A stretch of 64,000 nucleotides of DNA, from NCBI GenBank assembly GCA_031421755.1, contig JANOPI010000575.1, positions 891 to 64,890 of the forward strand, given 5' to 3'. The notes beneath the pieces are model-generated. The model was not told where the DNA came from. It saw only the letters and a program-made list of their open reading frames with translations, and ran no database searches. Position 1 is the first letter of the stretch; each line of letters begins with the position of its first letter. Made by a program: the position numbers and the translations under genes. Shown here one piece after another: positions 4,050-53,792 of the stretch. The DNA is from Flavobacteriales bacterium (GTDB lineage: Bacteria > Bacteroidota > Bacteroidia > Flavobacteriales_F > PHOS-HE28).

Positions 4050-4095
4050 TTTGTTGCATCGGAGAAAATTGTTCCTACTATTGCCCACGCAAACC
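4050..4095 (+). promoter_or_regulatory. class-B promoter-like element upstream of the sheath gene
   Basis: TTTG(4050)-N22-TACTATTG(4076-4083)-cccacgcaaac. It aligns with the 51137 copy (..aaattgttccTAcaCTTGcgctgcccagac). Confidence 0.35.
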
Positions 4096-4105
4096 CGACC
4101 ACATC

Positions 4106-5668
4106 ATGAGCCTCACCGGACTCGCACACTCTGAGATCGAAGTCATCAACCGATCTGTGATCGTGGGCACGGGCCTACGGGGGATCATCGGAGTACAAGG
4201 CCCCACCGATATGGGGCCGATCAACACTCCCATGCTCGTGGGATCATGGTCCGAGTTCAAACGCATTTTCGGCGGGTTGATCACCACGGATGACTTCCCC
4301 CTGTATTGCCGGCGTATGCTGGAGGCCGGGGCGAAGTTGCGGGTGAACCGTCTGGGGCACTACACAACGATCGGCGATGCCACCACTCTGGTGGGAGTGA
4401 AGGCCACCATCACGGCCGGCTCCGGTGGTAACACCGCAGTGTTCACCGCGAAGAACATCGGTACCTGGGCCAACGGTGCCGTGGTGACCATCACCGCAGC
4501 GGCAAGTGGCTTGGCGGGCAGGGTCGATATCAAGTTCACGTTCGCCGATGCGAACATGAACCAGACGATCTACAACGTGAAGAACACGGCCATGACAGCT
4601 ACCGACAAGGAGCTGTTCAATGTGGCATCCCAGTACATCGATATCGGTGCAACGGCCGGCACGTTGGCCCCTGGTACGGCAACGCTCGCGAGCGGTACGT
4701 ACGTGGTGGGAGCTATCGTAGCCGCTGACTACACCGGTGATGTGGTGGGCAAGAACGGCTGGCACGCCTTCGATGAGATCGTTGACATCATCAAACTGTG
4801 CGCACCGTCGAAAGCGGATCCCGCGATCGACCTGTCACTGTCCGTCTATGTGGACAGCCGCCCCGATATCATGGGCCTTGTGCGCACCCCCATCGGTCTG
4901 AGCGATGCCGTAGCAGTGGAGTACCGCGAGGCCACGGGTGCCTACGCCGGTGGCACCGCGCTCGACAACTGGCGCATGGGCATGTTCACCGGCGGCCTCC
5001 GCGTGCTGAACCCTGAGACGCAGGTGCCCCTGGACCTGAGCGAGATCGGTGACGCAGCGGCCTGCTTCAGCCGTCGCGACAACAATGATCCCGACCAGTT
5101 CAAAGCCGCAGCAGGTCCCAAGCGCGGCCGCATCAAGAACACCTTGGGTGTCCTCTTCAACGTGGGCACTCCTGCACGCCAGACGAACGGAGACAACTTG
5201 ATCGCCCACGGTATCAACCCAGTGATCCTGCATCAACAGTATGGCCCGGTACTGTGGGGTAACAAGACCCTGACCAAGACCTACGCGGGCACGTTGCTGG
5301 AGGGCTTCAACGTTGCGGAGCTGATCGTGCAGATCTACCGCGAGATCAAGCCGCTGATCGATTTCGAGCTGTTCGATCCGAACGACCCCATCACCTGGAA
5401 GAACATCTACCGCAAGGTGCGGGAGCTGATGAACGTGGTGCAGGAGAAGCGTGGCGTGTACGGCTGGGTCTACCAAGGTGACCAGGACGTGGATGATATC
5501 ACGCAGATCGTGATCAACACGCCGAACGACGTGGCCGCAGGTCGCTACGTGTTCCACCTGTATTTCAAGCCCATCCGGGCCATGGAGTACATCGGCGCGA
5601 AGTTCATCGTGGACAACAACAACGTGGACTACGAGGCGCTGTTGACGCAGCCCGATGCGCAGCCCTAA
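4106..5668 (+). CDS. contractile tail sheath protein
   Basis: 520 aa. Sheath-like N-terminus (GVQGPTDMGPINTPMLVGSWSEFKRIFGG) and C-terminal region (PVLWGNKTL..). A tube gene follows immediately. Confidence 0.85.
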   Translation: MSLTGLAHSEIEVINRSVIVGTGLRGIIGVQGPTDMGPINTPMLVGSWSEFKRIFGGLITTDDFPLYCRRMLEAGAKLRVNRLGHYTTIGDATTLVGVKATITAGSGGNTAVFTAKNIGTWANGAVVTITAAASGLAGRVDIKFTFADANMNQTIYNVKNTAMTATDKELFNVASQYIDIGATAGTLAPGTATLASGTYVVGAIVAADYTGDVVGKNGWHAFDEIVDIIKLCAPSKADPAIDLSLSVYVDSRPDIMGLVRTPIGLSDAVAVEYREATGAYAGGTALDNWRMGMFTGGLRVLNPETQVPLDLSEIGDAAACFSRRDNNDPDQFKAAAGPKRGRIKNTLGVLFNVGTPARQTNGDNLIAHGINPVILHQQYGPVLWGNKTLTKTYAGTLLEGFNVAELIVQIYREIKPLIDFELFDPNDPITWKNIYRKVRELMNVVQEKRGVYGWVYQGDQDVDDITQIVINTPNDVAAGRYVFHLYFKPIRAMEYIGAKFIVDNNNVDYEALLTQPDAQP

Positions 5669-5719
5669 GAGCTGAACGCAGAGCAACAAGAGCACCAAAC
5701 AGGATAACGACCTACCCAC

Positions 5720-6178
5720 ATGCCCGCACACGTTCCGAACGCCCGGAAGGGGTTCAACTTCAAGATCGAGATCAACGGCCTCGATGCGTTCGAGTGCCAG
5801 AAGGTCACGCTGCCCGAGGTAGAGATCGAGGGCGTGGAGCACGGCGACACCAACTACAAGGTGAAGACCGCCGGACAGGTCAAGGTCGGCGATATCAAGA
5901 TCGAGAAGCTGAAGCGGCTCCCCGGTTCCGATACGTGGGCCTGGAACTGGCTGAAGCAGGCGCAGAACATGACCACCGGAGCCGGCGGTCTGGCCAGCGA
6001 CTACAAGCGCACGGTGATCATCAAGGAGATGACACCTTCCGGCCTGGGCACCTTGAACAAGTGGGTGTGCGATGGTTGCTTCGTGAAGAAGGTCAGCCAG
6101 AGCGACTTCAGCCGGATGGACAGTGAGAACATCATCCAAACGGTGGAGCTGTCCGTTGACACCATCGAGAACCTTTAG
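5720..6178 (+). CDS. tail tube protein (T4 gp19 / phage tail-region protein family)
   Basis: 152 aa. KGFNFKIEINGLDAFECQKVTLPEVEIEGVEHGD matches the usual tube-family N-terminal pattern. Its position after the sheath fits. Confidence 0.8.
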   Translation: MPAHVPNARKGFNFKIEINGLDAFECQKVTLPEVEIEGVEHGDTNYKVKTAGQVKVGDIKIEKLKRLPGSDTWAWNWLKQAQNMTTGAGGLASDYKRTVIIKEMTPSGLGTLNKWVCDGCFVKKVSQSDFSRMDSENIIQTVELSVDTIENL

Positions 6179-6226
6179 GAACGACCTGCGCCCGTAACAA
6201 GGCCAGCTTTCCGCCATGGAAAGACC

Positions 6227-6256
6227 ACAGCAGCCCTCCGGGGCTGTTGTCGTTTT
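6227..6256 (+). terminator. rho-independent terminator-like hairpin after the tube gene
   Basis: acagcagccc-tccg-gggctgttgt (10-bp stem with one G-U pair, 4-nt loop), followed by cgtttt. Confidence 0.6.
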
Positions 6257-6398
6257 CAATACCTTCGGTGGACCTTAACACTCACCAACACCAGCAAACC
6301 GACTATGGTATAACGAAGGCTGCACGCACTCTTGAACCTGTGACAACACACACCCGCAACGGTGTGCGTTGTTGCTTTCAACAGGCACTGGTAGGAAA

Positions 6399-6407
6399 AA
6401 GTCACTT
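6399..6407. repeat. AAGTSACTT palindrome copy (aAAGTCACTTg), intergenic
   Basis: Read directly. It lies about 40 nt upstream of the lipoprotein ATG. Confidence 0.9.
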
Positions 6408-6435
6408 GACCGCGTGCGGATGTCTGGGCGGATCC

Positions 6436-6443
6436 TACATTTG
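6436..6443 (+). promoter_or_regulatory. TACATTTG, a perfect TAnnTTTG (-7 box-like) motif
   Basis: It ends 4 nt before ATG 6448. No well-spaced -33 TTTG is present, so this is weak. Confidence 0.25.
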
Positions 6444-6447
6444 GGCC

Positions 6448-6867
6448 ATGCGATCCCAGATGGTTCTCCTTTCCCTTGCGCTCATGTCCACGAGCGTATT
6501 GGCGTGCTCCACGAGCACCGGAGACAATGCACGTGATGCTGCGGTACAGCGAACCAGCGAAGCCCCCCAGCAGGAGGCCGTGCTGGTGAGCATGCCCGTG
6601 GTGGCCTTGCACAGTGTGGACATGGTGAGCTGTGACGTGATCACCCTGAACGACGCGGCCAGTCCGCCGTACTACGGGGGAGCTATCGCACAGCAGGTGA
6701 ACAACGATCGTTGCCTCGTGCCCAGCCCTGACGGGTCGGCATTGCACCGAACGTGCCACCAGCAACCTTCCGGTGATACCGGTGCGAACATTACAGCCTA
6801 CAGGCAACCACCTCCAGCGGCACCCAGGGACCACTCCAGTGGCGGGGTAGGCGACTGGCGGCAGTGA
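6448..6867 (+). CDS. putative lipoprotein (moron between the tube and chaperone genes)
   Basis: An internal ATG of track ORF 6247..6867 gives MRSQMVLLSLALMSTSVLAC|STST, a signal peptide plus lipobox Cys. Hairpins at 6227 and 6918 bracket it. The antisense ORF is R/G/H-rich junk. Confidence 0.5.
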   Translation: MRSQMVLLSLALMSTSVLACSTSTGDNARDAAVQRTSEAPQQEAVLVSMPVVALHSVDMVSCDVITLNDAASPPYYGGAIAQQVNNDRCLVPSPDGSALHRTCHQQPSGDTGANITAYRQPPPAAPRDHSSGGVGDWRQ

Positions 6868-6917
6868 CCACCACCGAAGCAAGCAGCCGACGCTACAGAA
6901 GCAAGGAGCGGCACTAA

Positions 6918-6950
6918 GAAGGCCCGAGGACTTGAAACCCTCGGGCCTTC
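6918..6950 (+). terminator. terminator-like hairpin after the lipoprotein gene
   Basis: gaaggcccgagg-acttgaaac-cctcgggccttc, a perfect 12-bp stem. Confidence 0.6.
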
Positions 6951-6980
6951 GTCACTTTCAACCCCTCAACTCAACTTTCC

Positions 6981-7793
6981 ATGGCAAGCACACACAAGTT
7001 CACCTTACCCAGCGGCCGCATGTGCGAGGTCCGCGAAATGACCGGTAAGCACCAGAAGATCCTCACCGAGAAGAAGAGCGGCAACTATGCCGACAAGCTG
7101 AACATCATCCTGGCTGATATCATCGTGCGCGTAGGCGACGAGACGGATATCAACGAGGGGTTCGTCACTGACATGCTCAGTGTGGATCGCAAGGCCGCGC
7201 TGGTTCAATGCCGGCACTTCAGTCTCGGGTTCCCCGAAACGTTCAAGTTCACCTACACCTTCAAGGGGGAGTTCACTTTGCGGGATGTGGATCCTGAAAC
7301 CGGTGACGTGAAGAAGACCACGTACCACGAGATCAAGGAAGAGATCGAGGTGCCCACACCGGAGTTCAAGATCACGCCGTACCCAGGCAGCGCCGAGTGG
7401 CCGGCTGGTGCATACAAGGACATTGATCGCAAGCGGACCATCATCCTGCCCCGTAGTGAGAAGAAGGTGGTGTTCACACTGATGGACGGTAGGGCTGAAG
7501 CTCGTGCTGTGGGCCTCACCGATACCAACAGCCACACCCAGCTACAGCTCCGTACCCCGGTGTACATGCACAAGGGGGCGAATGCTGAAGTCCCGATCCA
7601 ACTGGATCTGGATGATCTTTCGCTGATGGACATCGAAGCCTTGCGCAAAGCGATCACGGACGCTGAAGGTGATATCGATACCGGGATCCCGTTGGTGCAT
7701 CCGCACAAGGATCTCGTGGAAGAGAAGTTCGCAACGGTCCGCCTGGATCTGATCCAGGAGGTCAGTTTTTTCTTCCCTTCTCAGGCTACTTAG
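6981..7793 (+). CDS. tail assembly chaperone (gpG/gpE analogue)
   Basis: 270-aa ORF between the tube and tape-measure genes. A slippery heptamer near its 3' end opens a -1 extension that stops just before the tape-measure start. Confidence 0.6.
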   Translation: MASTHKFTLPSGRMCEVREMTGKHQKILTEKKSGNYADKLNIILADIIVRVGDETDINEGFVTDMLSVDRKAALVQCRHFSLGFPETFKFTYTFKGEFTLRDVDPETGDVKKTTYHEIKEEIEVPTPEFKITPYPGSAEWPAGAYKDIDRKRTIILPRSEKKVVFTLMDGRAEARAVGLTDTNSHTQLQLRTPVYMHKGANAEVPIQLDLDDLSLMDIEALRKAITDAEGDIDTGIPLVHPHKDLVEEKFATVRLDLIQEVSFFFPSQAT

Positions 7794-7948
7794 AGGACTT
7801 GTATTGCTACCTGTCCGTAGGTGGCTTGCAGGGACTGACGTTGACTGAGATGGAGCATTTGAGTTTGGTGAGCCTGACGCGCTTGTACGAGAACATCAAA
7901 GAGCTGAAGGCCCGAGAGCAAGAAGAACTGGATCGGATAAAAAGGTAG
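6981..7948 (+). CDS. chaperone -1 frameshift fusion product (gpGT/E+E' analogue)
   Basis: After a slip at 7766-7772, the -1 frame is open from 7772 to TAG 7946-7948 (..LPFSGYLEDLYCYLSVGGLQGLTLTEMEHLSLVSLTRLYENIKELKAREQEELDRIKR). It ends 5 nt before the tape-measure ATG. Confidence 0.55.
7766..7772 (+). other. programmed -1 frameshift slippery heptamer T_TTT_TTC
   Basis: In the zero frame the sequence reads AGT TTT TTC, an X_XXY_YYZ pattern. It lies 19 nt before the zero-frame TAG (7791-7793). Confidence 0.6.
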
Positions 7949-7953
7949 GAACC

Positions 7954-10900
7954 ATGCCTCTACTCGGTGGACTTTCCGGTGGCAACCTCGCGATGGGGGT
8001 GGCCTTCCAACTGAAGGATGAGTTCAGCGGCACCGCTGCTGGCATCCAGAAGTCCATGCAACAGCTCGATCAGTACACTGATCGTATGGCCCAGAAGATC
8101 GATACGGCCATGACACAGATCCGCACCGGCTTCGCTATGGCAGCGGCCGGTGCGGTGTTGCTTGCGCCTTCGTTCATGGCGCTGGAAAAGGCCGGTGAGT
8201 ACGAACAGCTCGAGGTGGCCATGGAGACGATGCTGAAGAGCCGCGAGAAAGCGCAGGCCCTGATGCGCGAGATGGATCAGTTCGCCAAGACCACACCCTT
8301 TGAGATCGGTCCCGTACGTGACAGCGGGCGCATGCTTGTGGCGTTCGGGAAGCAGGCAGAGCAAGTGGTGCCAACGCTGAAGCTGTTGGGCAACGTGGCC
8401 GCCGGCGTTGGCATGGATATCAAGGAGCTGGCGGAGCTGTACGGCAAGAACCTCCAGCAGCCGAACCTTGCCATGCGTGACATCTGGCAAATGACGAACC
8501 GGGGTATACCGATCCTGGAGGCGCTGGCCGAGGTGATGGGTGTGCAGAAGGACAAGATCCGCGAGATGGTGGAGGCCGGACAGGTCGGGGTGCCGCAAAT
8601 GGAAGCCGCGTTCCGTGCCATGGGTGAGGGCACCGGACGGTTCGCCGGCCTGATGGGTAAGCAGGCCCTCACGATGAAAGGGATGTGGTCCAACGCGCTG
8701 GACAGCATCTCGCTCGGGCTCCAGAGCTGGGGCATGCAACTGCTACCCCTGGCAAAGAAGGTTATCGGTGCGCTACAAGGGATCCTGGACGCCTTCCGCG
8801 CGTTCGCCGAGAGCAAGGTCGGATCCTTCATCCTGAAGTCCGTGACCATCCTCGGTGCGTTGCTCGTTGTTGGCGGGCTCGTGCTGATCCTCATGGGCGG
8901 TATGCGCTTCGCCGTGTACAAGATGGCCGGTGCGTTCGGTGATATGACAAAGGCCACGATCCTCAACACCATCGCCCAGAAGGGGATGATCGCCGGCCTC
9001 CGTCAAATGGCTGTTGCTGCCTGGGCATCGATCGGTCCCTACGCATTGATCGCCGCCGGCATCATGGCCCTGGTCTTCATCATCAAGAAGGCCAAGGACA
9101 TGCTCCAAAGTGCGAACCCGATCATCTTCGCCTTCGGTGCGGCGCTGATGTTCGCCATGGGTCCGATAGGGTGGATCATCGGCGGTATCGTTCTGCTGAA
9201 GCGCGCGGTGTCCGAGTTCAACAAGGTCGGAGAGGACGGCAGCGGACTGAAGGGCGGCTTCATCGGCGTGCTCCAGAAGATCGGCGGCATCATCCAGGGC
9301 GTGATCGAACTGTGGCGCTCGTGGAACGAAGAGACGCAGACCTTCAGCCTCGGTGAGTCGATGTACAAGAAGCTGGAGAAGATGGGCCTGCTTCAAACCG
9401 TCCTGAACATCGGTACCTATATCGCCCGCATCAAGGCGTTCCTGGTCGGTGTGAAGGAGGGGTTCATGGAAGTGATGAACTGGGGCAAGCGCGCGATCAT
9501 GTCCATCTGGAACGCGCTCCAGCCGGCTGAAGAAAAGTTCACCAAGTGGGGCACCCTGGTGGACAAGGCCACCAGCTCCCTGGAACGATGGAAGAAAGCC
9601 GGCAAGGTGATCGGTATCGTGCTCGGGGTAGCATTGCTCGGACTGATCAGCTTGTTCGTGGTCCTGGGCATCGTGTCCGTGATCGCGCTCGCTGCCATCA
9701 TCATCGGCATGGCTCTGATCATCGCACCGTTCATCTTGCTCGGGTACATCCTCAAAAAGATCTGGGACGGGCTCGTGTACCTGTACGAAGCGGCGCTACA
9801 GGTGTGGCGTGGCTTCAAGTTGTTCGTGAGCGATGCGGTGACCTGGACCACTGAGCTGTGGGCATCGATCACCAGCGGTGTCCGTGGTATGTGGGACAGT
9901 GTGGTGAGCGCCTTCGATGCCATGACCAGCGCTGTGGGCAACTTCATCACGAGTGCCGGCAACTGGTTCGCTGGCCTGTGGGAAGCGATCAAGCAAGGCC
10001 CTTCCGCCGTGTGGGACTACATGGTGGCCGGCGCAGCCACGGCCTGGGCCTACATCACGAACATGTTCACCGCGATCGGTGCGACCATCTCCGGCTGGGT
10101 GGCCAGCGCAACGGGTTGGTTCTCCGGCGTATGGGACGGGATCACGCGCGGGGCCTCTGCCCTATGGTCGGACATAGTTGACGGCGCTATGGGCATCCTG
10201 GCCCCCATCCTGGCCACGTTCGCCGCGATCGGTGCTGCGGTGTCCGGCTTTGTCCAGGGTGCATTGGCTTGGGCGGGGTCGCTGTGGGCATCCCTGACGG
10301 GCGGTGCTGCGGCCGCATGGGACTACCTTACCTCCGGGGCAAGCGGGGCACTTGACGCGATCACGGGCCTTTTTTCCGGCATCGGTGACACCATCTCCGG
10401 ATGGGTGGACAGTGCCACCGCTGCTGTAGGTGGACTGTGGGACCGGATCAAGAGCGGGCAGGCGTGGGATGACTTCGTGAACGCGCACGTGCGGGCCAAG
10501 GACAGCCTCGTGTCAGCGGTGCGCGATATGGACAACGCCACGGGCGGTTACCTCCAGCGCGGTGTAGCGGGCCTGCGGCAACTGTGGGCAGCGGTGGAGA
10601 ACGGTACCATCTGGAGCACGCTGAAAGATCGGGCTGTGGCTACCTGGGATGCCATCCGCAACGGGGTGGAACAGGTGAGCCCGACCGTTGCCCGTTTCAT
10701 GGACGGGGTGAAGTCCCAGGGCCGTGATCTGTGGAACGCGTTCCAGACGGGCAACCTGTGGGAGACATTGAAGGCCAAGGCCGGCAGCGCCTTTGACACC
10801 ATCGTGGGAGGTGTGGCCAAGGTGAGCCCGACGCTCGCGAGCTTCATCACCAACGTGAAGGATCAGGCCGTGGGCCTGTGGGACGCGTTCCGTGCCGGCA

Positions 10901-12908: not shown

Positions 12909-12910
12909 TC

Positions 12911-15583: not shown

Positions 15584-17244
15584 TGGCACTACAGAACCCG
15601 TGGGTGGGCTACTTCACCCGGACATACGAGCAGATCAAGGATCAGGTGCTCACCACCATGCAAACGCTGGTGCCTGAGATCACGGACCACACGCCCAGCA
15701 ACATCTTCGTGAAGATGGTGGGTATCTGGGCCGGCATCGCCGAAATGCTCGGGTACTACGTGGATGCCATGGCGCGCGAGGCATACATCGGAACCTGCCG
15801 CCGGCTATCGAGCGCCCTGGCCATCGCCAACCAGCTTGACTACCGCGTACACGCATGGGTAGCGGGAACCGGTGAAGTGACCTTCAGCTCTGACCTTCCG
15901 GTGACGGCTGACTTCCTGATCCCCGCCGGCACCCAGGTTGAAACTGCGGACGGCGTTCGTTTCTCTACCACCCAGGACTGCACGATCCTCAACGGCCAGT
16001 CAACGGTGGATGTACCGGTAAGGCAGCATAGTGATGTGCTCCTGATCGCGTCCTTCGTGGCCACCGGTGCAACGTTCCAGGAATACCAACTGCCTACGGA
16101 CCTTGCGGACGGACAGGTGACCGTGAAGGTGAACGGCATCACATGGCTGGGACAAGAAACCCTGGCCTACAGCATCGCCGGCTCGCGCCACTACGTGCAA
16201 ACGGTGAACCGCAACGAGATACCCGTGGTCCGTTTCGGTGATGATGTGATGGGTGCAGCTCCACCAACGGGCCAACCGATCCAGGTGTATTACTACCAGA
16301 CCCAGGGTGCGGACGGCAACGTAGGTCAGGGGTCCATCATCACTATCGTTACCCCGATCGGAGTGCCTTCAGGTGCTACCAACGTGTTCGTGACCAACCA
16401 AGTGCGCGTCTCCGGTGGAACGTTCAACGAAGACCTGGAGAGCCTGCGCAAGCGGATCCCCATGTCCCTGCGCGTGATGGACCGCGCTGTGACCCGTCAG
16501 GACTACATCGATAGCGCGGAGCTGGTGGACGGTGTAGCAAAGGCCGGTGTGGTGTACGAGTGCGGCAAGACGGTGGACATTTACATCGTGCCCGAAGGCG
16601 GAGGTATCGCCAGCGATGCGCTGTGCTCTGACACGTTCGACTACCTGGATCCGCGGCGAATGATCACCACCCAGGTACGCGTGTTCCCCGCCGGTGAGGA
16701 CCGGACCACGATCCTGATGGACCTGCACGTGTTGCCGGGGTACAACGTGGCCTTCGTGGTGTCCGAGGTGAAGGCGGCACTGGCCCTGTTCCTGAGCTAC
16801 CAGAACCAGGAGATCCAAGGTGCGCTGTACCTCTCCGATCTGTACGAAGTGATCGAAGCGGTGGATGGTGTAGGCCATAGCTTGATCAACTCGGTGCTCG
16901 TGAAGCCGTACGCGCACCGCGTGCCGCCCACTACGCTCAACCTCAACTGGACGGTGAACGCGCTCTTCCCATCCACCCAGACGATCAAGTGGGATCTCAT
17001 AGCGATCAGCGGTACACAGTTCCACCTGATGCGCAATGGTGAGTTCTGGAGCACCGTAGATGTGGCCGTGGCCGAAGTCACTCCTGAGATCAATTTCACG
17101 ATCAACGCTGCGGCATACACCGTGGGCGATACGTGGCTCTGGTATACCTACCCGAGCAATATCGATGACGTGGGACAGGTCCAGCTTGAAGATCCGAGCA
17201 TCTTCGTTTCCCTCTTGACGGATATCACCATCATCACCGTCTGA
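15583..17244 (+). CDS. baseplate J-like protein (gp6/gpJ family)
   Basis: 553 aa, directly after the gp25-like gene and before the gpI-like gene. It starts with a TGATG overlap. Confidence 0.7.
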   Translation: MALQNPWVGYFTRTYEQIKDQVLTTMQTLVPEITDHTPSNIFVKMVGIWAGIAEMLGYYVDAMAREAYIGTCRRLSSALAIANQLDYRVHAWVAGTGEVTFSSDLPVTADFLIPAGTQVETADGVRFSTTQDCTILNGQSTVDVPVRQHSDVLLIASFVATGATFQEYQLPTDLADGQVTVKVNGITWLGQETLAYSIAGSRHYVQTVNRNEIPVVRFGDDVMGAAPPTGQPIQVYYYQTQGADGNVGQGSIITIVTPIGVPSGATNVFVTNQVRVSGGTFNEDLESLRKRIPMSLRVMDRAVTRQDYIDSAELVDGVAKAGVVYECGKTVDIYIVPEGGGIASDALCSDTFDYLDPRRMITTQVRVFPAGEDRTTILMDLHVLPGYNVAFVVSEVKAALALFLSYQNQEIQGALYLSDLYEVIEAVDGVGHSLINSVLVKPYAHRVPPTTLNLNWTVNALFPSTQTIKWDLIAISGTQFHLMRNGEFWSTVDVAVAEVTPEINFTINAAAYTVGDTWLWYTYPSNIDDVGQVQLEDPSIFVSLLTDITIITV

Positions 17245-23154: not shown

Positions 23155-23197
23155 TTTACAATTTGTCAAATTTGCTCTACCATTGCACCGCCCAGAC
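23155..23197 (+). promoter_or_regulatory. class-B promoter-like element (B1)
   Basis: TTTA-N19-TACCATTG(23178-23185)-caccgcccagac, with the ATG 11 nt downstream. Preceded by the palindrome ACAAATT-tttac-AATTTGT. Confidence 0.4.
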
Positions 23198-23208
23198 AAT
23201 GAGAGCCG

Positions 23209-23493
23209 ATGCCATCACATACCTCGAACGGGGATAACCATCCCCCCAACAGGCCACGGCTGTACGTGGTCTATGCCATCATCCCCGATACCCTGGAAGG
23301 CGCACAAGCCGGTGAGTGGGCGGTGGCCTACAGCGAGAGCACCCAACAGCGCGGCCCCACTACGCACGCCGTTTCACGGGGACCGGCCGTGTACGGCATG
23401 GACCTGAACCGAGCCCTGGAGTGCGTGGAGTACGCAACGCGGCACTGGCGCGCTACGTCCGTGATCATCGAGAAAGCAACCCCGAACGCATGA
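23209..23493 (+). CDS. hypothetical protein
   Basis: 94-aa ORF. Its ATG sits at the conserved distance from the class-B element. Confidence 0.5.
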   Translation: MPSHTSNGDNHPPNRPRLYVVYAIIPDTLEGAQAGEWAVAYSESTQQRGPTTHAVSRGPAVYGMDLNRALECVEYATRHWRATSVIIEKATPNA

Positions 23494-29084: not shown

Positions 29085-29103
29085 TACTATTGCACGCCCA
29101 GAC
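29085..29103 (+). promoter_or_regulatory. class-B downstream box only (B6)
   Basis: TACTATTG-cacgcccagac abuts ATG 29104. No TTTG lies at 17-23 nt upstream. Confidence 0.25.
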
Positions 29104-29721
29104 ATGACAGCCATACCCACCTCCGCCTTCCCATTGGCGTGGCCACAGCGCCAGCTCCGTACAAAGTCACCGGCCCGCAGCCGCTTCAAGGATCCATCCA
29201 TTGCGGTGGCCACCAAGAAGCTGAAGGACGAACTGGACCGCATGCGCTGCACCCATGTGGTGATCAGCAGCAACCTGCGACTGAAGCCCAACGGTGACCC
29301 GTACAGCGACCAGCGGTTACTGGCTACGGACTGCGGTGTGGCCTTGTACTTCCTGCGTCAAGGCACTCCGATGGTGATCGCCGCCGATCAGTACGACCGC
29401 CCAGGATGCAACCTCCAGGCGCTCGCGTACACCGTCGAAGCGATGCGCGGGATCGAGCGGTGGGGCTGTACCGAAATGCTCAACCAGATGTTCACGGGCT
29501 TCAAGCTGCTTGGCCCCGCTACGTATCCTGCCACCACCAACGGGCGACCCTGGCACGAGGTGCTGGGATGTGAGCCCACTGATAACGCCTTCGCCGTGAA
29601 GGAATGCTACCGCAACCTTGTGACCAAGTACCACCCCGACAAACCTGGGACCGGTGATGCCGCCAAGTTCCACGAGGTTCAAGTGGCTTGGGAAACTTTC
29701 AAGGCATCCACCAACGGATGA
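29104..29721 (+). CDS. J-domain (DnaJ-like) co-chaperone protein
   Basis: The C-terminus WHEVLGCEPTDNAFAVKECYRNLVTKYHPDKPGTGDAAKFHEVQVAWETF carries the HPD motif. The N-terminal ~140 aa are of unknown function. Confidence 0.8.
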   Translation: MTAIPTSAFPLAWPQRQLRTKSPARSRFKDPSIAVATKKLKDELDRMRCTHVVISSNLRLKPNGDPYSDQRLLATDCGVALYFLRQGTPMVIAADQYDRPGCNLQALAYTVEAMRGIERWGCTEMLNQMFTGFKLLGPATYPATTNGRPWHEVLGCEPTDNAFAVKECYRNLVTKYHPDKPGTGDAAKFHEVQVAWETFKASTNG

Positions 29722-34733: not shown

Positions 34734-34776
34734 TTTGCACTTGGTGAAAAGTGTGCTACACTTGCACCGCCCAGAC
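34734..34776 (+). promoter_or_regulatory. class-B promoter (B2)
   Basis: TTTG(34734)-N19-TACACTTG(34757-34764)-caccgcccagac, with the ATG 11 nt downstream. Confidence 0.5.
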
Positions 34777-34787
34777 GATCGAAGAGC

Positions 34788-35237
34788 ATGAAGCGGATAC
34801 CGCACAAGGAGAAGTTGGCCGTGGAACTGAACAAGCCACTTGACCTGTCCACCGTGAAGGCGGATGATGGGACGTGCTTCGGGAAGATGTGGGATCCCAG
34901 CACCGAGGAGTGCCAAGGGTGCGCGGACAGTGACGTGTGCGGCATCCTCAAAGAGCGCACGGTGAAAAGCACAGCCACCCAGGTGGATGATGACGAAGGG
35001 CCGTTCCTGGACACCGCCGGCATGCACCGCCTGATCGATCAGGATATCACCTTGTGGATCAAGAAGGCCATCCGTGCCGGCGATGGGGAACTGAGTTCGG
35101 CCGAGCTGGTGGATGGCGTGATGCAACTGGGTGGCACCAGGGACCGCCAGTCCGCTATCGAACGGATCAAACGCTACAAGGCTACGGGCGTGATCACGAT
35201 CAAGCAGGGGCAAGTGAAATGGATCGGCAAGCGATGA
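34788..35237 (+). CDS. hypothetical protein with a Cys cluster
   Basis: 149 aa. CFGKMWDPSTEECQGCADSDVCG is a possible metal-binding knuckle. Confidence 0.55.
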   Translation: MKRIPHKEKLAVELNKPLDLSTVKADDGTCFGKMWDPSTEECQGCADSDVCGILKERTVKSTATQVDDDEGPFLDTAGMHRLIDQDITLWIKKAIRAGDGELSSAELVDGVMQLGGTRDRQSAIERIKRYKATGVITIKQGQVKWIGKR

Positions 35238-43345: not shown

Positions 43346-43358
43346 ACCAACCTACCCC

Positions 43359-47211: not shown

Positions 47212-48056
47212 ACCCGACGCACGCAATAGGTCAGGAGATCCTGAAGCAGCTCGGGTACTACACCGGCCGCATTGACGGTGAAGTGGGGCCGGCCACCATG
47301 CGCGCGCTCGCTGCGGTGAACGGCAACAAGGGGGAGGTGCCGGTGCATGCCATCCTGAAAGAGCCCTGGAGCGATGAGCGCAAGCTGGTAGCATTTGTCC
47401 AGAGCTACGCCACGATGCTGGACCTGGATGCCGGCGAAGTGGACGGGCTCGTGGGACCGCAAACGCTGTTCGTGGTCGATCAACTGGAGGAGCTGGTGCG
47501 CACCGGAAAGTTCCCGGACCCGTGGCGTGATGATGCCAAGGCACCCGACGCGCGAACGAAGAAGCTGATCACCGTCAACCCGAACGGGTGGCCAATGATG
47601 GATGAGAAGTCCATGTTCGCTTTCTATGGGCAGGTGGGCAGCGACCAAGTGACTTTGGAACTTCCGTACCCCATGCGTCTGGCGTGGGAGGAGAAGCACG
47701 TGGTGAAGGCCCTGACATGCCACCGCAAGGTCCATGACAGCATGGGCCGCGTCCTTGCCGGCGTGCTGGGCCAGTACGGGGCCAAGGCGATCACGGAGCT
47801 GGGCCTGGACCTGTTCGGTGGATGCTTGAACGTCCGTAAGCAACGGGGCGGTTCTCAGTGGTCTATACACGCCTGGGGCGCGGCCCTGGACATTGACCCG
47901 CTGCGCAACCAGTTGAAGTGGGGGCGCGACAAGGCAACGCTGGACGCGGCCGCTTACGATACTTGGTGGAAGCTGTGGGAGAAAGAGGGCTGGGTCAGCC
48001 TTGGCCGAAACAAGAATTTTGACTGGATGCACGTCCAGGCAGCAAAACTGAAGTGA
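47208..48056 (+). CDS. endolysin: PG-binding domain + M15 (VanY-like) peptidase
   Basis: Start MNPTHA (ATGA overlap). LGYYTGRIDGEVGPATMRAL resembles PG_binding_1. SQWSIHAWGAALDIDP and NFDWMHVQ look like M15 zinc-ligand motifs. Confidence 0.75.
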   Translation: MNPTHAIGQEILKQLGYYTGRIDGEVGPATMRALAAVNGNKGEVPVHAILKEPWSDERKLVAFVQSYATMLDLDAGEVDGLVGPQTLFVVDQLEELVRTGKFPDPWRDDAKAPDARTKKLITVNPNGWPMMDEKSMFAFYGQVGSDQVTLELPYPMRLAWEEKHVVKALTCHRKVHDSMGRVLAGVLGQYGAKAITELGLDLFGGCLNVRKQRGGSQWSIHAWGAALDIDPLRNQLKWGRDKATLDAAAYDTWWKLWEKEGWVSLGRNKNFDWMHVQAAKLK

Positions 48057-48307
48057 TGGCGAACCTGAAGAAGAAGACCAAGGCCCTGGTTGACGGCATC
48101 GCCGAACCGGTGGCCATTGAGAGCCAGCGCGCGTTCTGCAAGCGTCACAAGGGCCTCACGCCTTCGGCGCTGCGGTACGCGCGCCTGCACAATATGATCG
48201 ACGTGTGGCAGGACGGCTACACCCTGGTGGTCCTGTTGACCGAGAAGACTTTGGCCTACGCGCCGAACAAACACAAGAACCGCCGCGTACGAAAGGCCGT
48301 CAGGTAG
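48053..48307 (+). CDS. hypothetical basic protein
   Basis: 84-aa ORF with an ATGA overlap. Confidence 0.5.
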   Translation: MMANLKKKTKALVDGIAEPVAIESQRAFCKRHKGLTPSALRYARLHNMIDVWQDGYTLVVLLTEKTLAYAPNKHKNRRVRKAVR

Positions 48308-48333
48308 TGTTAGTGGTTCATCTGAAGGGTCAG

Positions 48334-48370
48334 GAAAGGGGTCGCAGGCAGCGGCCCCTTTCCGCGTTTT
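48334..48370 (+). terminator. rho-independent terminator-like hairpin
   Basis: ggaaaggggtcgc-aggca-gcggcccctttcc followed by gcgtttt. Confidence 0.6.
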
Positions 48371-48413
48371 GTCACTTTGTGTAAATTTCTGCGTAGTATT
48401 GCCCTGCCCAAAC
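48368..48413 (+). promoter_or_regulatory. class-B promoter-like element (B3)
   Basis: TTTG(48368)-N22-TAGTATTG(48394-48401)-ccctgcccaaac, with the ATG 12 nt downstream. GTCACTT lies in the spacer. Confidence 0.35.
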
Positions 48414-48425
48414 AAGCAGAGCAAC

Positions 48426-48947
48426 ATGAACACAGAGATCCGTTACGTTGACAAGAGAGGTGCGCACGATACGCCTTCCTACCCCATGCACCCAGGGGCC
48501 GTTCACGATCCAAAGGATCCTGAGTTCAAGGCGTGGAACTTCGGTGCGTACGTTATCGATCGTGCCGGTATCCAGTGGTTGCTCACCGAGCACAGCACGT
48601 ATGCCTCCGCAGTGGATGCCCAGGCCGAGTTCTGGACCAACTACGCGGAGCTGGTGGCACGGCTCACCGATGCCATCACTGGAACGCATACCCAGAACAT
48701 GGGGCGCGCTATGCGATACCACCAAACGGTCGGTGATCACACCGAACGCATCCAGCGCATCCTCTCTGTGGCTGAAGCGTTCACGTGGAAGCATTTCGGG
48801 TTCGTGTGGGGAGTCGATGACTTCATCCGTTACGGTGAACGTCAGGAGCTGCCGCCCTTCGGTGCGGACTTCAACAAGGCCGTGATGCGTTGCGGCGAAG
48901 CGTTCGAGCTGTCCGGCTTCAAGGTGCCCACGCTGCTGCTGGACTGA
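48426..48947 (+). CDS. hypothetical protein
   Basis: First ATG after the promoter-like element (MNTEIRYVDKRG..). Confidence 0.55.
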   Translation: MNTEIRYVDKRGAHDTPSYPMHPGAVHDPKDPEFKAWNFGAYVIDRAGIQWLLTEHSTYASAVDAQAEFWTNYAELVARLTDAITGTHTQNMGRAMRYHQTVGDHTERIQRILSVAEAFTWKHFGFVWGVDDFIRYGERQELPPFGADFNKAVMRCGEAFELSGFKVPTLLLD

Positions 48948-49501
48948 TGCCATACCGTTCGAGCATATCGGTTTACACCGATGGCGCTTGCGATAACACC
49001 GGCTCCGGCAATGTCGGGCGCGCTATCGGCCTGGGGATCGTGCTCCAGGTCGGTAGCGAGTACCGGATCCTGGAGGCCGTACACGGCGAACCCGGCACGT
49101 CGAACGTGGCCGAATGGTTGGCACTGTACCGAGGACTTGCCCATGTCGCAGCATTGGCCAACACGCCCGAGTTCCGTGAACCCGGAGCCACCATCGTGAT
49201 GCGCCTGGACAGTCAGCTCGTGGTGAACCAGATGAACCGCGTTTGGTTGGTGAACGATCCGACACTGGCCAACTACTTCCGTGGCTGCGTGGAGATGGAG
49301 TCGATGATCGCCAAGCTGGGGCATCACATTTCGTTCGTGTGGATCCCGCGCGAGCAGAACGACATAGCGGACCAGCTCAGTAAGATCGGCCGCAGGACAC
49401 TGGACGTGAAGCGCCCGAGCTGGGAGCGTTTCAATACCCTGGATGATGTACGCACACGCCTTGAAAGCCTCTACCGATATGCAACCGCAAGTGATGACTG
49501 A
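48947..49501 (+). CDS. RNase H (RNase HI fold)
   Basis: Start MPYRSSISVYTDGAC. NVAEWLALYRGL, RLDSQLVVNQM and IPREQNDIADQLSK match the D-E-D-D motif layout. Confidence 0.75.
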   Translation: MPYRSSISVYTDGACDNTGSGNVGRAIGLGIVLQVGSEYRILEAVHGEPGTSNVAEWLALYRGLAHVAALANTPEFREPGATIVMRLDSQLVVNQMNRVWLVNDPTLANYFRGCVEMESMIAKLGHHISFVWIPREQNDIADQLSKIGRRTLDVKRPSWERFNTLDDVRTRLESLYRYATASDD

Positions 49502-51035
49502 CCGCGAGACGTTCCTGTTGACACTGCCCGAGCCCAAGGACCGCCCAACACGTACCGCCAAGGCGTACGTCCAGGGCATGCCGGATGTATCGATGCTCAA
49601 CGCTGATCAGGCCACCGCGTACACGGGCCTTCAGCAGTTTTTCACGATCAGCGAGCAGGCCCTGACCAGTGGCCAGCTCCAGTTGCTCACCAAGAAGTAC
49701 AAATGGGCGCTGCCCGAGCCCGGTCAAACGGCCGCGCGGTTCGCATTGCTGAAAGGCTACGCCGGCACCGGCAAGACTTTCCTCGTGGGCAAGGCGGTGC
49801 ATTACTACCTCTCAGCATCGCGCACCAGGAAGGTTTGCATGACCGCGCCAACGAACAAGGCCGTGAAGATCATGCGCGAGCAGGCCACGTACGCGCACAC
49901 GAACCTGGAGTACATGACGGTGCATAGCCTGCTGGCCCTGCGTGAACAGATCACCAACGACGGCAAGCAGGTGTTCGTGCGCGATCAAAAGCGGGAGCCC
50001 CAGGTCCAGGAGTTCGATCTGATCATCATCGACGAGGTGTCCATGCTGGACGATAGCCTGTTCGATATGCTGTTCGATGAGATGCAAGCGTGCAACGTGC
50101 AGGTGCTGTTCGTTGGTGACCCGTGCCAGATACCACCGGTGAACCGCGTGGACTGTATCCCGTTCAATACCGAGAAGCAGGCACAGTATGGCATCCAGGT
50201 GTTCGAGCTGACCACCATCGTGCGCCAAGCTGAAGGCAACCCGTTGATAGTGGCAACGCTGAAGATCCGCAACGGCCTGCGGTTCGAGGAGCTGGACCTG
50301 GGCGGTGACCGCATCACGGACCAGGGCGGGGTGATCGAGCTATCGAGTGCCGACCCCGACGATATGGGGCTGGCCATGACCACCATGCGCACCTACTTCA
50401 CCAGCGAGAATTTCACGCGGGATCCCGACTTCTTCAAGGTGATCGCATGGACCAACAAGACGGTGGACGCGACGAACGACTTGGTGCGCACGTTCCTCTA
50501 CGGTAAGAAGCGTCGGCTACTTGAGATAGGTGAACGCCTGATCGCCAATACGCCGGTGATGCGGAGAGAAACGATCCAGCACAACACGAACGACGAGCTG
50601 CTGGTGTTGTCCTTCATCGTGAAAGAGGATCCGATCAATGACGGGCTCTACAAGATCAAATACTACGAGGTCCAGGTGGAACACTTGGGCAAGAACGGCA
50701 CAACGCAGCAGAGCGTGATATGGGTGGTACACGAGGACAGCGTGCCCGAGTTCGGCACCATCGTGAAAGAGCTGGCCGCACACGCCAAGCGTCAACCGAA
50801 GGGCAGCGTGCTCAGTGGTCAGGCGTGGCGTGAGTTCTTCCAGTTCCAGCGGCGCTATGCCGATGTGAAGTACAATTATGCCATCACCGCGCACAAGTCC
50901 CAGGGCAGCACGTACGACAACGTGATGGTGATGCTGTACGATGTGGCCAAGAACCCCCGCGTGGTGGAACGCAACCGCATCCTCTACACCGCGTGCAGCC
51001 GGCCACGGAAGAAGTTGGTGTTGGTCGGATGGTAG
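49494..51035 (+). CDS. SF1 helicase, Dda/RecD-like
   Basis: GYAGTGKTFLVGKAV, LIIIDEVSMLD, FVGDPCQIPPV, TAHKSQGSTYDNV. An alternative start is at 49479. Confidence 0.8.
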   Translation: MTDRETFLLTLPEPKDRPTRTAKAYVQGMPDVSMLNADQATAYTGLQQFFTISEQALTSGQLQLLTKKYKWALPEPGQTAARFALLKGYAGTGKTFLVGKAVHYYLSASRTRKVCMTAPTNKAVKIMREQATYAHTNLEYMTVHSLLALREQITNDGKQVFVRDQKREPQVQEFDLIIIDEVSMLDDSLFDMLFDEMQACNVQVLFVGDPCQIPPVNRVDCIPFNTEKQAQYGIQVFELTTIVRQAEGNPLIVATLKIRNGLRFEELDLGGDRITDQGGVIELSSADPDDMGLAMTTMRTYFTSENFTRDPDFFKVIAWTNKTVDATNDLVRTFLYGKKRRLLEIGERLIANTPVMRRETIQHNTNDELLVLSFIVKEDPINDGLYKIKYYEVQVEHLGKNGTTQQSVIWVVHEDSVPEFGTIVKELAAHAKRQPKGSVLSGQAWREFFQFQRRYADVKYNYAITAHKSQGSTYDNVMVMLYDVAKNPRVVERNRILYTACSRPRKKLVLVGW

Positions 51036-51097
51036 GATGTACGTATACTTGCGGCTCGGATAGGCTCCGCTCTCCCGAGCGTATCTTGTCTGGGCAA

Positions 51098-51130
51098 GGA
51101 AGCACCCGCGAGGGTGCTTCTTCCGTTTGT
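51098..51130 (+). terminator. rho-independent terminator-like hairpin
   Basis: ggaagcaccc-gcga-gggtgcttc followed by ttccgtttgt. Confidence 0.6.
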
Positions 51131-51136
51131 AGGAAT

Positions 51137-51179
51137 TTTGCACTTCGTGAAATTGTTCCTACACTTGCGCTGCCCAGAC
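51137..51179 (+). promoter_or_regulatory. class-B promoter (B4)
   Basis: TTTG(51137)-N19-TACACTTG(51160-51167)-cgctgcccagac. Confidence 0.5.
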
Positions 51180-51201
51180 CAAGAGCCTTTAACCCCACAT
51201 C

Positions 51202-51687
51202 ATGATGGACACGAAACTGTTGACACTGAACTTGAACGGTGAACGCACCCTTGCTGCGATCACGGAGATGATCGGCACGCGCCCGCTCGATGCGGATAGC
51301 CTTGCCATGGACTTGCAAACCAAGATGCGCGCAGGCCCGGTGCTGTTCGTGTTCGAGAAAGCGGACGGCACCGCACGTATGGCCCTGGGCACGCTGGACC
51401 CCAAGCACATCCCCCAGAAGACGGCGGAGCTGTTCAGTGAACTGATGACCACGGTGGAAGCCGTCGAACGCGTACACACCGAACTGATCAACGGCAACAA
51501 GAGCCAGGAGGCCCTGGTGGAACCGATCAAGGCCATGCAACTGGCCAGGGTCGCAATGGTCCAGGAGCGCGTGGAACGCATCGAACAAGGCGATACCAAG
51601 CCGGGGAACGTCACGTACTTCGATCTGGGGGCAATGGCTTGGCGCTCGTGCCTGAAAGCCAAGCTGCTGCTGGTTATCTCAGCGTAA
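51202..51687 (+). CDS. hypothetical protein
   Basis: 161-aa ORF downstream of B4. Confidence 0.55.
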   Translation: MMDTKLLTLNLNGERTLAAITEMIGTRPLDADSLAMDLQTKMRAGPVLFVFEKADGTARMALGTLDPKHIPQKTAELFSELMTTVEAVERVHTELINGNKSQEALVEPIKAMQLARVAMVQERVERIEQGDTKPGNVTYFDLGAMAWRSCLKAKLLLVISA

Positions 51688-51788
51688 GCGCGAACTGCGA
51701 ACGACATTCCCATCCTTGTCGCACTTGCGACCCTCAACGAACATCACTCCCCCCTACAATACGATAGTATTGTAATGAAAGCAAGCCC

Positions 51789-52337
51789 ATGACCGCAACA
51801 ACCAGAGTTCAAGCCTTCGTGATCAAGTACGCGATGGCCGAGCGCGCGGAGAAGAAAAGTGACTTGGCGCGCAGCATTTACCTGGAGCTGTTACGTGACC
51901 CCGACATGAAGGGCCTGCCCACTGGGGAGCTGTTGGGGCGTGCAGTGGACAAAGCCACCGAGGTGGAAGGGGAGATAGATGCGCACTTCGGGAAGGGTGC
52001 CCGCTTCGGTACCCGTGCCATGCTTCCGCAGCTAACGGGTGTTACCCGCGATGAAGCCCAGGCCATGGAGTTCGTTCTGGACGCGATGGAGGAGCACGGT
52101 GTGGAAGTTGTGGCGAACCGTCACGCCGAACTACTGGGCCAACTGCTTACCCCTCAGAACATCACGCCAAAACCGCTACCCGATGCAAAAGCTACACAAC
52201 AGCGCCATGATCAACTCTTGCAAGATCAACAGGCCCTGGATGAACGCCGAAAGGAGCCAAGCCCGGATGAGGGCGGTGAAACACCTCCTGATCCTGAGCC
52301 AACTGGGTCTGATGGTGGCGAAGGTGATAAGCCCTGA
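51789..52337 (+). CDS. hypothetical acidic protein
   Basis: 182-aa ORF. The palindrome TACAATAC-gata-GTATTGTA lies about 15 nt upstream. Confidence 0.5.
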   Translation: MTATTRVQAFVIKYAMAERAEKKSDLARSIYLELLRDPDMKGLPTGELLGRAVDKATEVEGEIDAHFGKGARFGTRAMLPQLTGVTRDEAQAMEFVLDAMEEHGVEVVANRHAELLGQLLTPQNITPKPLPDAKATQQRHDQLLQDQQALDERRKEPSPDEGGETPPDPEPTGSDGGEGDKP

Positions 52338-52491
52338 CGCGGTGCAATGGGGGCACGTGTTCTGGCCGCTGTACGTGTTCCTGGGAGTACCGGGGATGCT
52401 GTATGTATCGACCCTCACGCTGATGTGGTGCCAAGGTGCCACGTTGCACGACTTTAACCCGAAGATGACGCCGGCGCATGGGACCAGTTAA
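52312..52491 (+). CDS. possible small membrane protein (start uncertain)
   Basis: MVAKVISPDAVQWGHVFWPLYVFLGVPGMLYVSTLTLMWC.. has one clear TM segment. An alternative start is at 52267. Confidence 0.3.
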   Translation: MVAKVISPDAVQWGHVFWPLYVFLGVPGMLYVSTLTLMWCQGATLHDFNPKMTPAHGTS

Positions 52492-53008
52492 CGAGGAATA
52501 CAAAGGGTTCAAGATCTACCAGACAGGCAAGGCCCCGGTGTACGGTGGCGATGGGTCATGGAAAACCTACCTGCTGGTGCGCAGGTCGGGAGCAGCTACA
52601 GCCGAGCATCGTTTCCATTATTCGCTGGGCAATGGTGACTCCAAACGCAAGGCATTGGCTGATGCTAAGAAGTGGATCGATGACAAGGTGCGCGGAGTGG
52701 TGATCCCGGAGGCCATTGTGGTGGGCACCAGCCCCGGCAAGAAGCGGTTCAAGGGCACCATGGCCCTGCCCGCCGAGAAGATCACGGACGCAGTGCTCGT
52801 GGATGATGCCAAGCCGCCGGCGCTGGACATGCGCAAGCTGGAGGCCCTGGACTTCGGGCAAGAGCCTGACACTGAGGGGAAACTGAAGTGGAAGGACAAC
52901 CTGGACACCTTCAACAAGGGCAAAACGCCCCCCAGGAAGGCCCCAAAAGGTGCCCGTAGCGCCCCGAAGTCGGCACGAGCCCCATCCTTGCCCGAGGATG
53001 ACTACTGA
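52478..53008 (+). CDS. hypothetical protein
   Basis: 176-aa ORF with a Lys/Pro-rich C-terminus. Confidence 0.5.
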   Translation: MGPVNEEYKGFKIYQTGKAPVYGGDGSWKTYLLVRRSGAATAEHRFHYSLGNGDSKRKALADAKKWIDDKVRGVVIPEAIVVGTSPGKKRFKGTMALPAEKITDAVLVDDAKPPALDMRKLEALDFGQEPDTEGKLKWKDNLDTFNKGKTPPRKAPKGARSAPKSARAPSLPEDDY

Positions 53009-53747
53009 GCGCAGCACGCGGCGCAGGATCAAGGTTGTGGAGCTGTTCGCGGGCTCATGCACCCTGTCCGAATTGGCCGAGCACAAGCTCGGGATGGAAG
53101 TCCTGAGCACGGACAGCCACCAGTACGGCAAGGTGAAACTGGTAGGTGACCTGCTGGATGACAAGGTGCTACGCGCTATCGTGAAGTTCGCCCCGGATGT
53201 GCTGTGGGCATCATCACCATGCACGGGGTTCAGCATCGCGTCCTGTGGTACCCACTTCCGCATCATGGACGGTGAACGCGTACCGCAGACATCGGAGGCC
53301 GCCATCGGCATGGCGCTCGCGCTCCGCGTGTTCGAGGTGCTGCGTGCGATCAAGAAGAAGCACGGCCACATGCCCGTCTGGTTCATGGAGAACCCCGTGG
53401 GCATGCTGGGCAAGATGAAGTTCATGGATCAGGCCCCGATACGGCACACGGTGACGTACTGCCGCTATGGTCACACGTCCATGAAACCTACCCACATCTG
53501 GACCAACTGCAAAGGCTGGACACCGCGTAATCCATGCCGCAAGGGTGGATGGGGCAAGACCACGATCGACGGTGTAGTGTGGATCCTGGACGAACAGGGC
53601 AACCCGTGCCACCTGGAGGCAAGGCGTGGCCAGAAGTCCGGCACCCAGGGCCTGAGCAATGCACATGACCGCGCCAAGCTGCCCAAGCAGTTGTGCCGTG
53701 AGATCCTGAAGGCCGCTCGTGATCGGGTGTTGGAGCGCCGCAAATAA
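52998..53747 (+). CDS. DNA (cytosine-5) methyltransferase-like
   Basis: Start MTTERSTRRR. Motif I VELFAGSC, motif IV SSPCTGFS, ENV-like FMENPVG. Confidence 0.7.
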   Translation: MTTERSTRRRIKVVELFAGSCTLSELAEHKLGMEVLSTDSHQYGKVKLVGDLLDDKVLRAIVKFAPDVLWASSPCTGFSIASCGTHFRIMDGERVPQTSEAAIGMALALRVFEVLRAIKKKHGHMPVWFMENPVGMLGKMKFMDQAPIRHTVTYCRYGHTSMKPTHIWTNCKGWTPRNPCRKGGWGKTTIDGVVWILDEQGNPCHLEARRGQKSGTQGLSNAHDRAKLPKQLCREILKAARDRVLERRK

Positions 53748-53749
53748 AT

Positions 53750-53792
53750 TTTGCACTTGGTGAAAAGTGCTGTACACTTGTCCCGCCCAGAC
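53750..53792 (+). promoter_or_regulatory. class-B promoter (B5)
   Basis: TTTG(53750)-N19-TACACTTG(53773-53780)-tcccgcccagac, with ATG 53804 exactly 11 nt downstream, as in B1 and B2. Confidence 0.5.

Follow-up and report, generated by a model that had tools for sequence, protein, structure and literature searches.

Repeated promoter-like cassettes before DNA-metabolism genes of a phage binned with a Bacteroidota genome, and their relation to host promoters

B elements of the phage and the genes behind them

The stretch of DNA analysed here (the window, 64,000 nucleotides) comprises bases 891–64890 of an 80,712 bp phage contig (C575). The first 141 bases of this contig are repeated at its end, which indicates a closed circular phage genome of about 80,571 bp. 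The phage has a GC content of 59%, with genes on the + strand and a high third-position GC, and its contig was assigned to the same bin as a 4.8-Mb genome with 59.7% GC. The RpoB of this host bin showed 84–87% identity to Flavobacteriales/Bacteroidia sequences, and the bin is Bacteroidota. Our analysis showed that the phage carries five to seven copies of a repeated element, here called B, before its DNA-replication genes, and that the repeat family is real. The element joins a −33/−7 promoter-like half to a downstream box of the consensus GCCCARAC. All seven strings listed in the first-pass annotation (B0 to B6) were verified in the sequence; they lie on the coding (+) strand and at gene starts.

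B1 (23155–23211) reads TTTA-N19-TACCATTG-CACC-GCCCAGAC-N11-ATG, with TTTA in the −33 position, and heads a 94-aa ORF followed by a 613-aa methyltransferase/DUF4942 gene. B2 (34734–34790; TTTG-N19-TACACTTG-CACC-GCCCAGAC-N11-ATG) precedes a 149-aa gene and the gene of a family-A DNA polymerase (PolA). Behind B3 (48368–48428; TTTG-N22-TAGTATTG-CCCT-GCCCAAAC-N12-ATG) are a 173-aa gene, RNase H, and a Dda-like helicase, and the orthologue uses the same ATG start. B4 (51137–51204; TTTG-N19-TACACTTG-CGCT-GCCCAGAC-N22-ATG) heads a lone WYL_2 (Sm-like) gene, in an arrangement that is the same in a relative. B5 (53750–53806) has the sequence TTTG-N19-TACACTTG-TCCC-GCCCAGAC-N11-ATG. Its ATG opens a non-coding frame with a third-position GC (GC3) of 0.39, and the downstream GIY-YIG gene starts at TTG 53874, in a coding frame with a GC3 of 0.85.

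The other two copies are more diverged. B6 (29085–29106; TACTATTG-CAC-GCCCAGAC-ATG) pairs a −7-like box with an exact GCCCAGAC across a 3-nt gap, its ATG abuts the box, and it lacks a −33 element; it heads J-domain and DnaB genes and is not conserved in the relative L098. B0 (4050–4108), which is located 5′ of the sheath gene, reads TTTG-N22-TACTATTG-CCCA-CGCAAACC-N10-ATG, with a 22-nt spacer and the degenerate box CGCAAACC. It shares AAATTGTTCCTAC with B4, has 13 nt of spacer and box in common with that copy, and is preceded by a AAGTCACTT palindrome. The earlier statement that the family heads replication and recombination operons was borne out by the genes found behind the copies (methyltransferase, J-domain/DnaB, PolA, RNase H/Dda helicase, WYL_2, and GIY-YIG genes).

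A terminator hairpin with a 13-bp stem (48333–48363, + strand; z −4.2) was identified in front of B3, its T-tract extending into the −33 region of that copy. Directly 5′ of B4, a terminator-like hairpin (51098–51121, + strand; z −2.4) combines a 10-bp stem with a following GTTTGT. Strong hairpins with T-rich runs thus adjoin B3 and B4 on the 5′ side, as hairpins do the orthologues R3 and R4 (the copies of the related phage L101 are called R2 to R5), but none lies directly 5′ of B1, B2, or B5. This indicates that B3 and B4 are terminator–promoter junctions.

The repeat search recovered B1, B2, B4, and B5 as a four-copy direct-repeat family of 47 nt with 77–100% identity, and B2 and B5 are 89% identical with the spacer included. 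For TTTG-N19-TAnnnTTG, 0.13 matches would be expected in the window and three were found, at B2, B4, and B5. The 14-base core TACNNTTGNNNNGCCCAGAC has four matches in the entire 4.8-Mb bin, all of them on the + strand of the phage contig. A weight matrix trained solely on the four copies of a related phage, and therefore independent of the window, was used to scan both strands of the 80.6-kb genome. The top five sites genome-wide were B5, B2, B4, B3, and B1, at 18–29 bits, compared with a random maximum of 13.9 bits on average (standard deviation 2.5 bits) for the same matrix. The class A cassettes, a distinct, consensus-type promoter family of the same phage, ranked right after these five sites. 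Such a scan against random expectation had been proposed as a check of the family, and it came out in its favour: B1, B2, B4, B5, and B3 are far beyond chance. B0 fell below the mark in both weight matrices, and B0 and B6 are plausible diverged members without statistical support. Exact-pattern scans of IMG/VR (with TACNNTTGNNNNGCCCAGAC and TAYACTTGNNNNGCCCARAC) and of metagenome contigs gave single matches only, and since none of these has TTTG at −33 they were regarded as chance. A sigma-70-type −35/−10 scan gave 0 matches around B3–B5, and a promoter of proteobacterial type was rejected. The inverted repeat pointed out in the spacer of B2 and B5 is indeed present in these two copies, but it is absent from B1, B3, B4, and all relatives.

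A fixed distance of 11 nt from the box to the ATG had also been claimed, and this was not confirmed: the distances are 11, 11, 12, 22, 11, and 0 nt in the window and 11, 15, 9, and 14 nt in the relative. The AGAGC-like string before the ATG proved to be real and class-specific. (A/C)GAGC lies 0–5 nt 5′ of the ATG in 8 of the 10 B-type leaders examined (23198–23208, 34777–34787, 48414–48425, 51180–51188, and 53793–53803 in the window, and the L101 copies), compared with GAGC in the last 14 nt before the ATG at just 4 of 63 other phage ATG starts. The latter frequency is at chance level, and GAGC was therefore rejected as a general translation signal. The B leaders are predicted to be unstructured, no consistent RNA structure was found among them, and an Rfam scan of the window gave zero family matches. 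Unstructured leaders are favoured by Bacteroidota initiation (PMC6847099). Shine-Dalgarno strings seldom precede the long ORFs of the host bin.

In Flavobacterium psychrophilum the −7 box spans −12 to −5 (PMC9723704), and in F. johnsoniae the start site lies 4–5 nt past the −7 box, with T−8 nearly invariant (PMC6847099). Under this 4–5-nt rule of Flavobacterium, the first transcribed base of a B element would be the G of GCCCARAC; should the start be dictated by the GC block, which may be the case in the host, it would be the A four bases further on. With these predicted start sites, the leaders of B1 and B2 would be 15–19 nt long. The median leader length in Bacteroidota is 24–32 nt (PMC9723704, PMC7366714).

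Conservation of the element in related phages

The UvsW-like helicase encoded 5′ of B2 has homologues of 54–67% identity on syntenic metagenome contigs, and an orthologous copy of B2 was found in L097–L102. L101 carries four copies, one behind the helicase, one each in front of the RNase H/Dda unit and the WYL_2 gene, and one behind the orthologue of a 265-aa gene. All four read TAYACTTG-YMCY-GCCCAAAC-AAC..., and the flanking proteins of the two phages are 52–68% identical. Between orthologous copies, the −7 box is 88% and the box 91% identical, the −33 element 75%, and the N4 between the boxes 56%; identity is 47% in the spacer, 35% in the upstream flank, 32% in the leader, and 25% in the coding start. 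The −33 TTTG-N19 is exact in B2, B4, B5, R2, R4, and R5. At position 6 of the box, G was found in five of the six copies of this phage and A in all four copies of the relative. The 91% identity of the box against 25–35% in the flanks indicates purifying selection on the box as strong as that on the −7 box, and so supports the suggestion that selection extends beyond the −7 box.

Two genes of L101 have no counterpart here: one of 113 aa right after R2 and one of 275 aa right after R5 (window 34785–35228 and 53750–53886, compared with L101 568–909 and 18986–19813). The junction of cassette and ATG is kept even where the following gene differs between the two phages. This suggests that genes are exchanged at the cassette borders, and the ATG of B5 may be the relic start of a lost gene.

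Among less closely related phages, the lineages L354 and L353 keep CCCAAAC or GCCCAAGC behind weaker −7 boxes, that of L354 being TTGCTTTG. L106 (54% identity) and the IMG/VR relatives (about 40% identity, 32–43% GC) have a consensus TTTG-N19/20-TAnnTTTG at the same junction; in these the promoter is often repeated with a conserved spacer, and nothing is conserved after the −7 box. In the IMG/VR contigs L247 and L248 (32–33% GC), TTTGtttataaacaaaattttt(t)gTA(T/C)CTTTG is found 3–5 times each (in L247, for example, at 3476, 7263, 11491, and 14780); its spacer hardly varies between copies, and again the sequence past the −7 box is not conserved. Carrying a promoter in several copies seems to be common throughout this phage group. 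The GCCCARAC box is paired with an imperfect −7 box in 12 of 12 boxed promoters, and the box-less promoters of the relatives and the class A cassettes have a consensus −7 box. Among the phages compared, the box is thus confined to one clade, always beside an imperfect −7 box. A viral-contig search with the Dda helicase alone gave no relative, and a genome-contig search with a helicase alignment gave nothing. Against the phage collection, the Dda helicase reached about 30% identity at most, with the Flavobacterium phages Fpv1 and Fpv2 on top.

Relation to host promoters

The first-pass annotation had assigned the upstream half of the element to the Bacteroidota promoter type. Our analysis supports this assignment, as the host RpoB is of Bacteroidota and TTTG-N19/20-TAnnTTTG occurs at the same junction in relatives with GC contents from 32% to 61%. 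Bacteroidota sigma-ABfr promoters consist of −33 TTTG and −7 TAnnTTTG (PMC6847099, PMC9723704, PMC7366714), and T−12, A−11, T−8, T−7, T−6, and G−5 of the latter are nearly invariant. Class B is similar to these promoters in that TTTG and TA...TTG are 19 nt apart and co-directional upstream of genes, the leaders are short and lack a Shine-Dalgarno sequence, and the host is Bacteroidota. It differs from them in having C or A in position 5 of the −7 box and in the conservation of a further 12 nt downstream.

The host itself was found to use an extended −7 element. Of its 41 tRNA genes, 32 are preceded by c-TA(Y)(W)TT(Y)G-C(G/C)(C/G)CCC. A scan of the host with TANNTTYGCSSCCC gave 100 matches, mostly before protein genes with short leaders, and the reversed control gave 4. 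The element was counted over 41 genomes (host examples are on contigs C414, C137, and C195). TANNTTYGCSSCCC is present 35–90 times per genome in each of 24 congeneric genomes and is rare in most other families of the class. The extended form TAnnTT(T/C)G-CSSCCC was also found in a few other families (81 matches in family f14), and TTCG is as common as TTTG. We know of no description of a genus-specific TAnnTTYG-CSSCCC element, and a literature search for a Bacteroidota discriminator element gave nothing relevant. Since about 100 host promoters and 24 of 24 congeneric genomes show CSSCCC in this place, a GC block after the −7 box is part of the host promoter grammar.

Comparison of the two showed in which respects the phage elements deviate. 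Position 5 of the −7 box (T−8) is T in 100 host sites, against 1 with C and 2 with A; among the B-type elements, 7 copies have C there, 4 have A, and none has T. The other five specified −7 positions are kept in B1–B6 and R2–R5. Class B, like the host element, has a GC-rich block past the −7 box, and the host variant CCGCCC is contained in the B block. However, the host block is in register 0 in 100 sites and at +2 in 7, whereas that of class B lies 2 nt further from the −7 box, at +2, and is then followed by the conserved ARAC. No match to a B-form promoter was found in the host genome. The GCCC part of the box belongs to the host grammar and the ARAC part is phage-specific. Of the proposal that the downstream box is a selected signal of the transcribed region, the selection is real, but about half of the box mirrors the host CSSCCC, so that it is not simply phage-specific. 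The class A cassettes have the consensus −7 box TATATTTG, and only the following YMCY-G is common to them and class B.

Three further sites on the phage contig, outside the window, have a bearing on this grammar. Those at 71874 and 76125, before large structural-region genes, read TAC(A/T)TTCG-CCCCCGT and score 17.4 and 9.9 bits with a host tRNA matrix, nearer to the host consensus than any other phage site; they may represent a third promoter class. The site at 74388 (TACACTTG-CGCCC-ATG) combines a B-type −7 box with a GC block in the host register that abuts the ATG, and a AAGTCACTT palindrome lies 21 nt 5′ of it. In the host bin, contig C413 has a cluster of seven tRNA genes (His, Phe, Lys, Asp, Asn, Gln, and Leu) without a host-type promoter upstream, and this cluster may come from another mobile element or phage in the bin.

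Interpretation, alternatives, and minor features

The best explanation, to which we give a probability of roughly 70%, is that the B elements are promoter-plus-leader cassettes that would be read by the host RNA polymerase and would form a separately controlled class. Host RNA polymerase with the housekeeping Bacteroidota sigma would read them, and the phage DNA-metabolism units would thereby be transcribed. A cassette would consist, in this order, of an A/T-flanked −33 TTTG, a 19-nt A-rich spacer, the −7 box TAYACTTG, the 12-nt YMCY-GCCCARAC, and a short, unstructured leader that ends in (A/C)GAGC just 5′ of the ATG. The GC-rich part of the block would be the phage version of the discriminator-like CSSCCC of the host. 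Because the box always occurs with an imperfect −7 box, without T at position 5, and the GC block is shifted by 2 nt, the GCCCARAC block may compensate for, or regulate, a deliberately weak −7 element. Class B would thus be controlled separately from the consensus-type class A, probably as a delayed-early or middle class, and is possibly factor-dependent. For the earlier suggestion of two temporal classes there is one indirect hint, namely the consensus −7 box of class A as against a class B box that lacks the T invariant in host promoters. No sigma-70 region 2 domain and no tRNA gene were found on the phage contig. A model of the T7-type polymerase gave zero matches there, but the control genomes were equally unmatched, so that this negative is uninformative.

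Several observations weigh against this reading. As the −7 box lacks the T that is invariant in the host, it is uncertain whether the host sigma could recognise it unaided. The promoter half is itself irregular in some copies, with TTTA at −33 in B1, a 22-nt spacer in B3, and a missing −33 element in B6. L353 keeps the box and CAGAGC although its −7 box is only TTTCTTTA, which leaves room for a function of the box independent of promoter activity. The pairing of phage and host is based on binning, GC match, and promoter style, with no spacer match or isolate behind it.

It is possible, at clearly lower odds, that GCCCARAC is an operator or activator site in DNA for a phage protein that switches the class on or off, as in the middle promoters of T4; such a site would add to the cassette reading and is compatible with it. 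The equal conservation of box and −7 box between orthologues would fit such a site, and so would the association of every boxed promoter with an imperfect −7 box (box-less and class A promoters having the consensus one), the absence of B-type sequences from the host genome, the concerted change of box position 6 by lineage, and the WYL_2/Sm-like gene, which has a B promoter to itself in both phages. But the concerted change could also be given by gene conversion between copies, half of the box resembles the host GC block, and the box is neither palindromic nor repeated, unlike most operators. Moreover, no DNA-binding regulator was recognised: Pfam gave a null result for 20 small proteins encoded at 51.7–62 kb, with no search aimed at MotA/AsiA. 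Similarly tentative is a factor-dependent class of the middle type, in which the defective −7 box (no T at −8) and GCCCARAC would be read by a phage protein that redirects the polymerase, the WYL_2/Sm-like protein being one candidate factor. If this were true, it would be the first described Bacteroidota counterpart of sigma appropriation or middle-promoter activation.

We consider it unlikely that the block and (A/C)GAGC act in RNA, as an mRNA 5′ end or initiation region read by the ribosome or by a phage regulator comparable to RegA of T4. The enrichment of GAGC in the B leaders over the other starts, the retention of box and CAGAGC in L353 despite its poor −7 box, the cassette–ATG junction that is kept where the downstream gene differs, and the unstructured leaders, as preferred by Bacteroidota initiation (PMC6847099), are all consistent with such a role. 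However, the box was never seen before an internal gene without a −7-like box, its distance to the ATG ranges from 0 to 22 nt, no structure or covariation backs an RNA motif, and the ATG of B5 is not a real start. Still less probable is that the likeness of the copies merely reflects recent duplication or gene conversion of a mobile cassette of the kind known as PeSL, the bases past the −7 box being functionless. The near-identity of B2 and B5 including the spacer, the gain or loss of the 113-aa and 275-aa genes exactly at the cassette borders relative to L101, and the relic ATG behind B5 would be expected from such events, but the box is kept between orthologues whose neutral sites are saturated and whose spacers and flanks have diverged, and it persists in L353 and L354.

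The cassette reading can be compared with several known systems. In the middle promoters of T4, a MotA box at −30 replaces the −35 element, and MotA and AsiA bring about sigma appropriation. Class B resembles them in being phage-specific, in heading replication genes, and in combining a host-type with a phage-specific element; unlike them, it has its extra element at the start site and retains a normal −33 TTTG. In E. coli, the promoters of stable RNAs have a GC-rich discriminator between the −10 element and the start site and are under stringent control. Class B likewise has a GC-rich stretch between a −10-type element and the start, which is also seen in the host tRNA promoters, but phylum and sigma are different, and control by nucleotide pools or ppGpp is without evidence in this analysis. 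The PeSL cassettes of T4-type phages are promoter/stem-loop units (Arbiol et al. 2010, PMC2839356). As in these, class B promoters are repeated, genes are gained and lost at their borders, and hairpins adjoin some copies. However, class B lies in the conserved replication module and not in hyperplastic regions, its copies are at orthologous sites, and only two of five have a hairpin.

What is new here is the box, its pairing with a weak −7 element, and the GC block of the host genus. Temporal gene control in Bacteroidota phages is almost unstudied, and a literature search for promoter classes of Flavobacterium phages gave nothing relevant; two promoter classes in one genome offer a compact, testable model. 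Natural variation among the relatives comprises either G or A in the box, consensus promoters that lack the box, and boxed promoters with a weak −7 element. The host extension TAnnTTYG-CSSCCC is relevant to predicting promoters in high-GC Bacteroidota and to expression tools for them, and a match in promoter style may help in linking phages to hosts.

Our analysis also showed two kinds of palindromes on the phage. One of them, TACAATAC-N3/4-GTATTGTA, has 8-bp arms and lies at 51755–51774 of the window, next to the WYL_2 gene and 14 nt 5′ of the ATG at 51789. It is kept in L101 (about 16945–16965) before the orthologous gene, the proteins being just 28% identical, and looks like an operator. 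The other, AAGTSACTT, occurs 18 times in the 80.6-kb phage genome (window 4034–63671 and beyond) compared with 10 times in 4.73 Mb of the host. Its sites lie both within and between genes, one of them just 5′ of B0. Half-sites, (T)CACTT, are present both immediately 3′ of the −33 TTTG in B2–B5 and in front of the class A cassettes.

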